From NCBI GenBank assembly GCA_951406725.2, contig OX597832.1, forward strand, positions 56,110,001 to 56,174,000: DNA of 64,000 nucleotides, in the 5' to 3' direction. The DNA comes from Octopus vulgaris (lineage: Eukaryota). A model generated the notes under the pieces. The model did no database searches. It was not told the origin of the DNA and saw nothing but the letters and a program-made list of their open reading frames with translations. This document shows positions 27,137 to 63,156 of the stretch, piece after piece. Made by a program: the position numbers and the translations under genes. How positions within the stretch are numbered: position 1 is the first letter of the stretch; the number at the start of each line of letters is the position of its first letter.

Positions 27137-27244
27137 CTGACAGCTGTTTCGGCAGTGAGGACAGTCATACCTCATTTAACCTATAAGCCATAAAGGCAGG
27201 TATAAATGAGGCATTAACAAGGATGCCCCACGGCCTCTTCAGAG
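27137..27244 (-). ncRNA. Type I hammerhead ribozyme at PLE 3' end
   Basis: CUGAAGA (27242-27236), long stem II (GGC/GCC, GUGGGG/CCUCAC, GCCUCAUUUA/UAAAUGAGGU), GAAA, palindromic ACAGCUGU, GUC site; stem I weak. Confidence 0.78.
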
Positions 27245-29375
27245 AATTAAATTAAATTTGTTATAATAGTGAAAAATATTATATAATCATATACATATAA
27301 ATATAAAAATATAAAAATGTAAAATATAAAAACTTATACATCATAATGCTACACTTATATAATATAATACACATTTGTACAAAAAGGAAGGTAAACAGAA
27401 CAAAATAAAACAAAATATATAACAGTGTATATATTAATATTAATAAGTACCGATATTATACATATTTGGCTAATAGTTTTTTTTATAAAAAAAAAAAAAA
27501 AAAAGGGCTAACACATATGGAGATGAAAAATAATAATTAAATCCGTGGTACAGTTCATAAAATTCTAAAGCTATAAAAGTTAATAAAAATTACTATTAAT
27601 AATAATAATAATAATAATAATAATAATAATAATAAAAATAATAATAATAAAAAATACTAAAAATAGATACAGTTAAGTTAGCACCAAGTCCATCCTTTCA
27701 AGATCGAAATAACTATGAGTTAAGAAATGCTGACCACTAGGTAAAGAAAATTTAGATTAATTCGATTGGCTATTGGTTTGAAATTTAAATCACAAAAGAA
27801 AATTATACGGTTGGTTAGTCAAGGAACGCCAATATTCACACACGCATCTACAGATCAATCGCACATACACACATAGTTATATGTATATACATACACTTAT
27901 ACACATACATATTCACAAGCAACAACTAGCACTTAGATAAACAAAAAAGGGAAGCAACTATGCTAACATTTAGTCCTTCAAAATTATAACTGAGCCTCAA
28001 TAACAAAAAAAGAACCATCCATGCATTCTATAAAATATTTAATTTAGATATAAATATATTTTTAAATATCAGTATGTTACTAATTCAGATAATTATTTCA
28101 TGGGTAACTTAAAATTTATAACACCGGTTTGTTACAGAGTAAACATACGGTTGTTAGGTTTATCGTAAGTTTGTTATGATTTTAAGTACGCTAAATTATA
28201 AAATATAAAATATAAGATATATATTAATTTAAATATTATAAATAAGTCACTTATTAACTTAATAAATATAGTGCCATAATATACCAGTTTAGGCATTAAA
28301 GAATAGAAGGAGAAGTATTAATGTAAACGTTTATGAGAACATCACAGAAATTTTAAATAAATTTTATATTATAAAGACTTAAGATGAAAAGAGATAAAAT
28401 AAATAAAAAGGAATAAATACGAAGGAATAAATACGGTTATACACATAATTATAAGTACAAACTAGTATATATGTATTCATATATTATTAAAATTAAATAA
28501 AAATAAATGATAGATATGTATGTATAAAACTACACCAGTATAAGTAAATAAGTAAAAAATAAATAGGTAACAAATTAGATGACTTGATATGTATGTAAAC
28601 ATCTACACTTAAATAGGCAAATAAATAAATGAATAGAAGACTAGATGCAAAGATTGATAATATTACAATAAAATGGGAAATAAATAAAAATAAATAAAGT
28701 GAATATATATATTTTATATTGTTGAAAGTAAATATGTATGGAAGGATAGTTTAAAGTACAAATCCAGAGGACTATAGATATAAACTAAATATATGAGGCT
28801 GGTAATAATTATAAAGCAAAATGCATGTAAATGAGAAAAATGAAAAAAAAAAAATGAAAAAGGTTTATCAGTGAATAGCATAAGATACAAATTAAGGTGA
28901 GTACAAAAAGACCAAATATATAATAAAAACCTTCCAAATAAACACATACAAAAAACCTATAATCTCAACCTAAACCCACCAAACTCACAAAAGGCTCTCA
29001 TATATTACATATTATACAATATCATTACATTATCTAGAGCTAGGTATCTAACCAAGATATACATATATACTATGCAATATACTATGCAATATTGGAAAAC
29101 TTCAAAAATCACACATTACAAGGCAAATACCAAAATGAATATGTTATTTTATGTCATATTGCATTTCTCTTAAAAAAAACAAACAAAAACCCACATACAA
29201 AAACCAAGAAACCAATAATACTAGACACAATCCATTAATTATTATACAAATGTAGCTATAAAAATTATAAAATTATGAAATTTATAAATTGTATACTTTA
29301 GAATTATAGAAGACCACAGGTATATTTAGTTAAAGAAGGGAATTAAAAAATTAATAATAGTGGAAGTGCTAAGTT

Positions 29376-31070
29376 CTATTTGAATCTAGAAAAGGTGAAC
29401 GGTAGCCTATGAATACAAAAGAAGTTTTTCTCATTAATGTTGTTAATAATTTGCCGACCCGCTTTAATAATGAAGAAAATTTCATTAATACATAGAGAGC
29501 ATTTTTATTTTTTCCATTATACACAGGTGCTGAAGTTAGTATTTTCCAGTTTAATCTAAAATCTAAGTTCTTACTTTTAAGTTCCCAAATGTATGCACTT
29601 AGCCCTGTAGAGTACATTCTATTTTTATTCCTAAAAGTATATCTGTGATAATTCCATCTTTGTTTTATGCTATTCATAGTTGCCCCGATATACACCCTAC
29701 TACTCAATTGTGTATCTACAGTGCATTGGTAAACTACCTCCTTCCTGAGGCATTGATTACCAAATACACATTTATTTTTATTTCTGCAATTACAAAGATT
29801 AACAGAATGAGGAAATCTAAGATTGGACACCACCCCTATACTACTATTCACATTATAAGTGTTACAATTGTTATCATCATCCAAACCCAAAATCAACGAA
29901 TGAGTTAATTTCACATTATCGGCTATATTCCTATCACTAGTACTAGTATTGGTAGTAGTAGTATGATCTATTACATTTATATTATCTCTGACAGGTATGG
30001 TGCACTCATTATTAGTAAGGAGGTTGTTCCCATTTGTTCCAAGAAAATTTCTATTCCTATTATTAATGAAGAGGGGCAAGTTTTCCTGGTCTAAATTCAA
30101 TTTTCTATCCTTATAGAAGTGATCCAGTTTCTTGTTATTAAAAGAGGAGATAATGGTGGCTAGATTATGAGTAATGCTATATCCCACTCTAACAGTACCG
30201 TTGTTAATTAAAGGACTAAATTTATTCCTATCCTTACCAAAATGCCTAAAAATAACATTATGCAAAGCTCTCACTATGTTTGTTTTAATCTGCATTGCAT
30301 ACGGGATAATCAACCAAAGAGTATCCTTATCAGAATTAGGATTGCCTATATAATTAATGTTATTTGTAAAAATCCTATTCGTAGACCAACTCATAGGATT
30401 ACTATTCTTACCACTGTTATTATTGTATCTATCTATATCAATATTACCATGGTTATTGCGCAAGTAAACTTTACCATTATCATGTCTACCATAAGTTTTA
30501 ATTCGTATATTATTATTAATATTACTACTATTACCCGTATGCTTAGATCTATTTGAGCTACCGTTCACCTTTCCAAGGTTAACGTCACTTCTACATTTAT
30601 TATAGGTGTTATCATATATTCTATTTTTACTATTCTTATGTATATTGTTGATTATCCTAAATCTATTTGTGTTGTTCCTGATAGTTCTACCTCCATTAGG
30701 GGGTTCCCCTTAGGTATAAACCAAATCTTACTTTTATATCCTGCCTTAAGTAATGCTACATTGTATCTATCACAGTGTTTGTTAAAAATTTCCTCGTTTG
30801 AGGATAAACTAGAAATTCTCTGACTAATGCTACGCACTAGTGCATTTTTAATTTGAGGGGGTGATTACTAGAACGGTTAATGTATATTAGGTTAGAATTA
30901 GGTTTAATATAGGGTTCATGTAAACCATTAGTAATGTTACAATTAACATCTAAATAATTAGCAGAATAATTTTCACTTTCAATGATAATGGATAGGCCGA
31001 AGCTTTTAAAAAATTTATTTATTCTTTTTTTCAGAAGATCTAATCTCCTATTTGATGTATTCCTAACACA
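29376..31070 (-). pseudogene. PLE polyprotein C-terminal part: RT thumb + CxCx5C linker + GIY-YIG endonuclease
   Basis: NYLDV..PYIKPN..YINRSSNHP/P..ISQRISSLSSNEEIF; CNCRNKNKC..VVY..VYIGAT..KQRWNYH..LSAYIWELK..C.LC..E; three single-base frameshifts. Confidence 0.9.
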
Positions 31071-62545: not shown

Positions 62546-62726
62546 CATATATATATATATATATATATATATATATATATATATATATATATATATATAT
62601 ATATATATATATATATATATATATATATATATATATATATATATATATATATATATATATATATATATATATGTATGTATATATATATATGTAATCAAAA
62701 ATAAGCAACAAGAATGACTCCGGTAA

Positions 62727-62814
62727 TTTGGTACAATTGTTTCACACTACAACATTTTATTAAAAGTTGTAATTATTACAGCAGATTTAAGATGTTGAGT
62801 GCTCTTCAGCCAAA
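62727..62814 (-). ncRNA. Type I hammerhead ribozyme, complete core
   Basis: UUUGG-CUGAAGA-GCACU...AGUGU-GAAAC-AAUU-GUA-CCAAA. Confidence 0.82.
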
Positions 62815-63156
62815 AATATAGGTTTTCCAATAATACAAAAGCTTTTAAATCAAGTAGTAACATTTTAGAGAAGGTAGATATACAGATAAAGATGTAGTGC
62901 GAAACGATCGTACCAAATTACCGGAATCATTCTTGTTGCTTGTTTTTGATTATAATCACCCCGCAAATTTCTATGGATAACACCATACAAAATTCTGGTG
63001 CATCAAAATTAAGTACCATATTCATTTGAATCTAAATTGTTGCTGAACTTATATATATATATATATACATGTGTGTGTGTGTGTGTGTGTGTGTATTTGT
63101 GTGTGTGTGTGTGTGTGTGTGTATTTGTGTGTGTGTGTGTGTGTGTGTGTGTGTGC

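Follow-up and report, generated by a model that had tools for sequence, protein, structure and literature searches.

Hammerhead motifs with palindromic stem III and their Penelope-like carriers in the Octopus vulgaris genome

We examined a stretch of 64,000 nucleotides from Octopus vulgaris (contig OX597832.1, positions 56,110,001 to 56,174,000 of the forward strand; hereafter the window), in which an original prediction, made from the letters alone, had placed nine dispersed hammerhead ribozymes with six different palindromes as stem III. These sites are most probably type I hammerheads on the 3' ends of several families of Penelope-like elements (PLEs), left truncated or head-to-head in (TA)n tracts, with palindromes that likely pair identical ribozymes for cutting. 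A varied palindromic stem III and dimer cleavage are already in print for PLE hammerheads. Less usual is a long stem II, present in ~17,500 matches in this genome as a new trait on an otherwise known hammerhead type.

Palindromic stem III in the window and across the genome

All nine palindromes were present at the predicted positions and strands, comprising six distinct sequences, and every one was preceded by GAA and followed by A, C or U. Compared with 100 block-wise dinucleotide shuffles of the window, palindromes of at least 8 nt in the context GAA + palindrome + H were clearly in excess (19 in the window, whereas the shuffles averaged 5.06 and never exceeded 13), and those with a pyrimidine preceding GAA numbered 15 versus 2.5. 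The 4-nt class by itself was weakly enriched (51 versus 37.4 ± 5.9). That count is inflated by the GAAACGUU ending of a unit resembling a short interspersed nuclear element (SINE), which is not a hammerhead; the unit is 184-217 bp long and is arrayed at 12574-13244, 22615-23175, 36793-37231 and 42653-43017. The predicted (AT)n setting was also borne out, with eight of the nine sites lying no more than 250 nt from a (TA)5 tract, compared with 39% of random positions.

As hammerheads, the nine sites were confirmed in part. Four carry both the CUGANGA and the GAAA...UH halves and thus a complete core (27140 on the minus strand, 34239, 51453 and 62733 on the minus strand), two have an altered core (33661, with U at position 6, and 59240, with A at position 5), and three have no CUGANGA in the window copy. 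At 55827 and 62904, a head-to-head inversion cuts the arms inside stem II, and 39550 is decayed; relatives of all three keep the CUGANGA half (L151 for 55827, L256-L285 for 62904, and L214, L215 and L217 for 39550). Four further sites, 59820(+), 6520(-), 58890(-) and 63441(-), had not been predicted. Rfam hammerhead models at gathering thresholds gave 0 matches anywhere in the window, and a strict short-spacer hammerhead scan recovered none of the nine sites, because 54-85 nt separate the upstream, first core half from the second at the 8-nt-palindrome sites. The sole match of that scan, at 22336, has neither palindrome nor stem I and was discarded.

The genome (2.8 Gb, 227 contigs) was searched with exact patterns, with reversed patterns as controls, so that the counts are exact pattern matches and not copy numbers. 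One pattern comprised the hammerhead core up to GAAAC-NNNN-GUH, with four free letters in stem III. It matched 14,781 times with a spacer of 40-70 nt (108 in the reversed control), 2,703 times at 71-100 nt (163) and, with a slightly looser core, 2,141 times at 10-39 nt (300), giving 19,625 exact matches versus 571 in the controls. The spacer was at least 40 nt, corresponding to a long stem II, in 17,484 of these 19,625. A minimal ACGU-type pattern had 35,528 matches versus 0 in the control, most of which carry a core change to U (position 6) or C (position 4). For close study, we fetched the first 100 listed matches of the 40-70-nt pattern with their surrounding loci; 105 matches were counted at first, and dropping four duplicates from overlapping loci left 101 unique ones, including one extra in a fetched locus. 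Later clustering kept the 122 of 170 matches with at least 2 bp in both stems I and II.

Stem III varies in its letters while self-complementarity persists, as predicted, and this was upheld by the genome-wide counts. Among the 101 unique consecutive matches, 78 had perfect palindromes of 11 kinds, 13 were paired with G-U, and 10 were other. Stem III was perfect in 18 of 24 clusters versus a mean of 2.0 (maximum 9) in 20,000 column shuffles, though the clusters are related and counts across them are therefore not independent. The outer variable pair was purine-purine in just 145 of the 14,781 matches. Imperfect pairs were G-U rather than A-C by 15 to 1, a bias that mutation at the DNA level would not produce by itself; eight of the 15 G-U cases share one variant. 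Overall, 12 of the 16 possible perfect palindromes were seen, 11 in the 101-match sample and one further in the 10-39-nt set. In one young family (L044, L049, L114 and L130), all five matches have a central tandem G-A mismatch in stem III instead of a perfect palindrome.

The family of 62733 and 62904 (1,258 matches) shows such a change within a single lineage. Its first 100 listed matches, tallied by eye, have G-C in 75, A-U in 19, G-U in six and A-C in none. The A-U copies carry common flank markers, which points to one compensatory switch from G-C to A-U at the master level and to a sub-lineage descending from it. CpG decay is an unlikely family-wide source of the switch, given that double changes (19) exceed single ones (6 and 0) and that the flank markers are shared. 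Computed energies favored pairing between molecules, with homoduplexes at -6.4 to -14.1 kcal/mol versus +2.0 to +2.9 for the monomer hairpin; the 12-nt palindrome at 55827 is nearly neutral as a monomer (+0.4 kcal/mol), and the 27140 motif co-folds in computation via its own palindrome.

The palindromes had further been proposed as family-specific dimerisation codes, for which we found no support; that they evolved to prevent cross-dimerisation of co-active families now seems very unlikely. In computation, two unlike perfect palindromes form a much weaker duplex (-6.0 to +4.3 kcal/mol) than two like ones; with such poor pairing, cross-dimers would be disfavored. Five clearly young multi-locus families carry five different palindromes, and the head-to-head pairs among the 100 listed matches of the 62733/62904 family agree in palindrome in 19 of 19 cases. 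Yet agreement between arms is expected if both come from one RNA, and by hand calculation five different palindromes in five families have a probability of 0.50. The kinds behave as random draws: 11 among 18 clusters equals the mean (10.99) of uniform draws from 16, and no over-dispersion was found among these clusters. Unrelated families share palindromes, that of 59240 being common to two large unrelated families and that of 62904 to eight clusters, and the 62733/62904 family carries two. The window pair 62733/62904 itself differs at two paired positions, though the flanks of both arms mark the A-U sub-lineage. For these unlike arms (62692-63050), mixed templates, conversion or, for this pair alone, CpG decay are all possible. 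The poor pairing of unlike palindromes would then be a side effect, not an evolved code.

Stem II spans 54-85 nt at the 8-nt-palindrome sites of the window and 40-100 nt, with compensatory pairs, in most matches of this type. It forms a single long hairpin; of 24 cluster representatives, 15 had z < -2. Double-sided pair changes numbered 10/25, 6/11, 8/15 and 3/18 across four superfamilies, where 92-95% of cells were paired. Since these counts were made on the related alignments that had also yielded the structures, they are supportive in strength. Stem I averaged 3.75 bp versus 0.77 in permutations. The long arm is likely tolerated, or serves something besides the usual contact between loops 1 and 2.

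Carrier elements and features of the window

That these motifs are type I hammerheads of PLEs, as originally predicted, was upheld by their anatomy, by covariation and by their links to open reading frames (ORFs). The 27140 motif belongs to a very young element, whose 3' end is ~200 nt away and for which 40 of 40 scored copies (1,288 candidates) are 100% identical over 201 nt. In the longer copies L136 and L138, the order is hammerhead, tail, reverse transcriptase (RT), endonuclease, a 2.4-kb untranslated region (UTR) and a second, identical hammerhead on the same strand, with 5.6 kb between the motifs; in L110, from another family, two identical hammerheads 4.7 kb apart on one strand surround an RT/GIY-YIG ORF. 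The window copy (26935-31152) is 5'-truncated at 31070, where an inverted tail piece follows, and its endonuclease is frameshifted late. Pfam gave no usable match for the element proteins. Marks of the Hydra clade were evident as RWR, DKT and YRDD in L136 and CxCx5C in the window copy, with a C-terminal GIY-YIG and no CCHH; (TA)n insertion, an inverted copy and a tail were likewise found, and L136 has CxxC and CxH near the protein end. By these motifs, rather than by a tree, the carrier is probably a Hydra-clade PLE. Between RT and endonuclease, there is a long asparagine-rich stretch (window 29369-30709; L136), similar to one known from rotifer PLEs (PMC3846280; this and the other papers are cited for the portions available).

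The 33661 type has a different carrier. In L253, a Neptune-type endonuclease precedes its motif by 742 and 855 nt; in L005 and L185/L246/L247, an endonuclease precedes it by 670-1,090 nt. The translation of L253 has an RT, a CX4CxxC linker and a GIY-YIG with inner cysteines and histidines (CCHH), all in agreement with Neptune elements. As judged by motifs, this carrier is probably a Neptune-type PLE, from a different clade than 26935-31152. Many copies of the family share a preferred starting point ~85 nt upstream of the core, and others start before or beyond it.

A GIY-YIG endonuclease on the same strand was found upstream in 5 of 41 clusters, including the four largest. Among these are the 27140 and 59240 families and, for 62733, a sister cluster of its family; a coding partner was established for none of 34239, 39550, 51453, 55827 and 59820. 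The sites at 55827 and 62733/62904 are head-to-head stumps joined within stem II, an inverted form of insertion known for PLEs (PMC3846280, PMC8557442). For 55827, a miniature inverted-repeat transposable element was ruled out, as the family copy L151 is not palindromic and has the full core, with a 29-nt stem II. Most window sites would accordingly be 5'-truncated or inverted 3' ends of coding PLEs of Hydra and Neptune type, and not separate non-autonomous families. The features are listed in Table 1.

Table 1. Hammerhead motifs and carrier remnants in the window
Position	Strand	Feature	Copies or basis
6520 (its C3 at 6547)	-	33661-type (ACGU) motif, damaged	Outside the range of the original prediction
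26935..31070	-	5'-truncated young PLE, probably Hydra-type: end of RT region, GIY-YIG region, ~2.4-kb 3' UTR with hammerhead, (TA)n end	Copy comparison
27139..27242	-	Hammerhead with intact core; palindrome 27147-27140; stem II of 85 nt at -38 kcal/mol; cleavage predicted after the C of 27139	
29369..30709	-	Frame of 446 aa from stop to stop, containing a CxCx5C linker and a GIY-YIG-like endonuclease; last part out of frame relative to L136-L138	No Pfam match for this frame
31070..31152	+	Part of the element's 3' tail extension in inverted orientation, then (TA)n; in full copies the matching piece comes ~84 nt after the 3' end and leads into the ORF	Comparison with full copies
33557..33760	+	~200-nt 3' end of a PLE, probably Neptune-type, between (TA)n tracts	2,336 first-look candidates
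33638-33665	+	Minimal hammerhead within 33557..33760; U at core position 6; palindrome 33661-64	
34217..34243	+	Minimal hammerhead, core intact; extra A ahead of stem II; palindrome 34239-42	
39550..39558	+	Remnant of an old, decayed copy with palindrome and second core half; relatives keep the first half, missing here	
51386..51461	+	Hammerhead, core present; 57-nt stem II; palindrome 51453-60; (TA)n 46 nt away	
55634..56096	.	Two element tails, inverted head-to-head and joined within stem II, neither with CUGANGA; 12-nt palindrome at 55827-38 (+) and 55780-91 (-)	965 first-look candidates
58886..58913	-	33661-type (ACGU) motif, palindrome damaged (site 58890)	
59176..59248	+	Tail of a PLE family with a hammerhead that has A at core position 5, a stem II of 54 nt and palindrome 59240-47	2,698 first-look candidates; GIY-YIG 283-476 nt upstream in L113 and L048
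59738..59828	+	Hammerhead with the core in place and palindrome 59820-27; one base of its 72-nt stem II is worn	
62732..62809	-	Hammerhead forming the short arm of a head-to-head insertion; intact core, palindrome 62740-33, stem II of 59 nt	
62888..62912	+	Opposite arm of the same insertion, starting inside stem II; palindrome 62904-11	
63441-63448	-	Seventh palindrome, GAA before and H17 after; no first core half found upstream	

Elsewhere in the window, a 173-aa frame at 17277-17798 (-) resembles the C-terminal end of a long interspersed nuclear element protein and lies inside a 3-kb (ATT)n tract (15740-18826). Repeat detection in the window was dominated by microsatellites, in which the genome is very rich.

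Cleavage, mobilisation and alternative readings

Dimer cleavage of such motifs is documented (PMC4209133, PMC7229834, PMC6765202), and a similar route may apply here. A partial-tandem transcript would bring two identical motifs together, their palindromes would form an 8-bp stem III helix, and the RNA would be cut after H17. Cleavage would be slow, and perhaps protein-assisted, with the long arm. Target-primed reverse transcription would then leave truncated, inverted tails in (TA)n. As an active master must pair with its own copy, selection would keep complementarity while the letters drift via G-U steps, and dispersed single copies would mostly be dead ends.

A number of points weigh against this account, in addition to the relatedness of the clusters and alignments and the placement of the Hydra-type carrier by motifs. 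An intact core is missing at five of the nine window sites. Nine of the 24 representatives fold no better than z = -2, some of them probably chance matches, and stem I is merely 2-3 bp in the youngest family, that of 27140, including its window hammerhead. The unit measures 4.7-5.6 kb, as opposed to generally under 3 kb in described Hydra elements (PMC8557442). Among 30 consecutive ACGU-type matches, 19 have U at position 6 and seven have C at position 4 (one having both), leaving five canonical; since this family is the most abundant despite its few canonical cores, cutting may not be needed, and catalysis has been reported as dispensable for insertion in vitro (PMC11167929). Finally, 36 of 41 clusters have no endonuclease within the 2-3 kb examined and could therefore be non-autonomous.

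This last point bears on the proposal that the genome hosts several non-autonomous families mobilised by PLEs such as 26935-31152, which mostly did not hold up. We consider it rather unlikely, though the least so of the alternatives, that most families resemble retrozymes or SINEs and rely on PLE proteins for copying in trans. Tandem arrays of non-coding units, each with a single hammerhead, do occur, with 594-bp units in L099 and L129 and 353-bp units in L171 and L173, and animal retrozymes have been argued to derive from PLEs (bioRxiv 10.64898/2026.07.22.740005). Both array families bear palindromes absent from the nine window sites, however, and this tandem arrangement was not found at any window site. 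No joints indicative of circular RNA were listed in the assembled contigs. The 594-bp unit has a 60-70-nt stem II, and the arrays fit retrozymes of the kind without long terminal repeats (non-LTR retrozymes). The 33661 family begins at nearly one site in 19 of its 20 best copies, and L071 holds three tandem 33661-type units. Yet L079, L233, L237, L242, L247 and L251 run past the start site, and the endonuclease lies upstream at the distances given above in L253, L005 and L185/L246/L247, the remaining copies being shorter; a fixed 5' end was thus dropped as proof of non-autonomy. A preferred 5' end could also arise in cis, by reverse transcription starting inside the RNA and running to a start site in the pseudo-long terminal repeat, as PMC11167929 would suggest. 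The four largest long-arm clusters have GIY-YIG upstream. The 33661 family in particular follows an endonuclease of a different clade from 26935-31152, and the 26935-31152 copy is itself truncated and frameshifted. Truncated ends of coding PLEs remain the preferred explanation for most window sites.

The core variants raise a different question, namely whether the motifs are kept as RNA structure, for protein binding, packaging or template pairing, and not as catalysts. In the commonest family, four sub-variants share a core change that is expected to lower activity, and they retain stem II and the palindrome. Variants at A6 are slow (PMC3088659), and a long stem II takes away the usual loop contact. 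In the experiments of PMC11167929, PLE hammerhead cleavage was protein-assisted, with none seen without protein and no read ends at the cut site. On the other side, the long-arm families retain all core letters across flanks that cannot be aligned, which fits selection on catalysis; the search pattern demanded those letters, however, so long-arm families with a dead core would have escaped it. On balance, we regard structure without catalysis as unlikely, and somewhat more so than copying in trans, and we retain the reading of cleaving dimers.

Possible A-to-I editing was noted at 26960-27290 in the window, where T>C on the plus strand, that is, A>G on the element strand, appears in contigs. 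T>C accounted for 15/19, 3/5 and 9/9 places in three runs guessed to be RNA, versus 2/7 in a deep unlabelled run (runs X1, X2, X6 and X17). Of the 19 T>C places, 13 are without such a letter in the deep unlabelled run and 15 without it in 41-49 genomic copies, and nine are common to runs of two studies. On the opposite strand, the three presumed-RNA runs had no A>G despite more A. Two candidate places are core A14 and A15.1 (27148 in one run and 27147 in two), a hint that these core bases might be edited and a lead to follow. The candidate places lie partly outside stem II, with a depth of 3-13 in one to four contigs, and the type of run is guessed, with no matched DNA. A broader scheme can be drawn, in which a long-armed class, overlooked by standard models, numbers tens of thousands in octopus-like genomes, the palindrome is a latch for self-recognition that restricts cutting of a PLE RNA to pairs of its own kind, the arm is a selected helix binding protein or ADAR, and editing of A14 and A15.1 is both an off-switch and a source of A-to-G drift in the palindromes; as a whole, we consider this scheme highly speculative and improbable.

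Relation to known hammerheads and significance

The closest known system is that of the Hydra-clade PLE hammerheads (Craig et al. 2021, PMC8557442), which include an octopus member, Hydra-1_Obim. Shared traits are a C-terminal GIY-YIG without CCHH, CxCx5C, DKT and RW[KR], (TA)n targets, inverted 5'-truncated copies, a tail, and a 3' hammerhead whose stem III varies by family yet remains paired. The published stem II has 3-7 bp and a loop of up to 10 nt (~24 nt at most; File S2), whereas the octopus motifs have 40-100 nt, and the published stem III mostly has one to three unpaired central letters (9-10 nt), in contrast to the perfect 8-nt palindrome seen here.

The type I hammerheads of metazoan PLEs (Cervera and de la Pena 2014, PMC4209133) share a helix III of 1-2 bp with a palindromic loop, the dimer model, an extra base after position 9, many families per genome that are mostly single truncated copies, and opposite-strand pairs 100-700 bp apart. 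The instability of their short palindromic helix III as a monomer agrees with the energies computed here. Their helix II of 4-8 bp is matched by 33661 and 34239 only, the 8-nt-palindrome motifs being far longer, and the position-6 U variant of the 33661 type is not among the descriptions available from that paper. Repeat-type dimeric hammerheads (Perreault et al. 2011, PMC3088659) likewise have a palindromic stem III or loop III as the basis of the dimer, with no long stem II described in the portion available. Variation of this palindrome among ribozymes has been recorded (PMC3088659, Fig. S8 legend; PMC4209133; PMC8557442, File S2). With non-LTR retrozymes (PMC7229834; bioRxiv 10.64898/2026.07.22.740005), this genome shares non-coding tandem type I units, in two such families; the window sites, in contrast, occur singly or head-to-head, and several can be traced to coding PLEs. 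L253 agrees with Neptune-type PLEs by the motifs of PMC8557442, while the 33661-type core differs, being mostly altered at position 6.

Our literature search found no report of long-arm PLE hammerheads, of octopus hammerheads in that form, of heterodimer tests or of hammerhead editing; Lunse et al. 2017 and the supplements of PMC4209133, PMC3088659 and the bioRxiv preprint were outside its scope. Recent PLE activity in Octopus vulgaris has been described in PMC13282606, in whose available text the word ribozyme is absent. Core-only searches in PMC8557442 used a spacer of 7-17 nt. As short-spacer searches miss the ~17,500 long-arm matches, hammerhead counts, and some calls of PLEs as having no hammerhead, may be too low. 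File S1 of the same paper labels eight Naiad families, including one from Octopus, as "HHR_half_core"; their second core half is 35-50 nt distant, and they may be long-arm hammerheads.

The contribution of this genome is one of scale and of a test bed. Its 12 of 16 palindromes, together with a natural series of G-C, G-U and A-U pairs, form a panel for homodimer and heterodimer cleavage, and the coexistence of a very large family whose core is changed with young families whose cores are intact bears on whether PLEs need the ribozyme.

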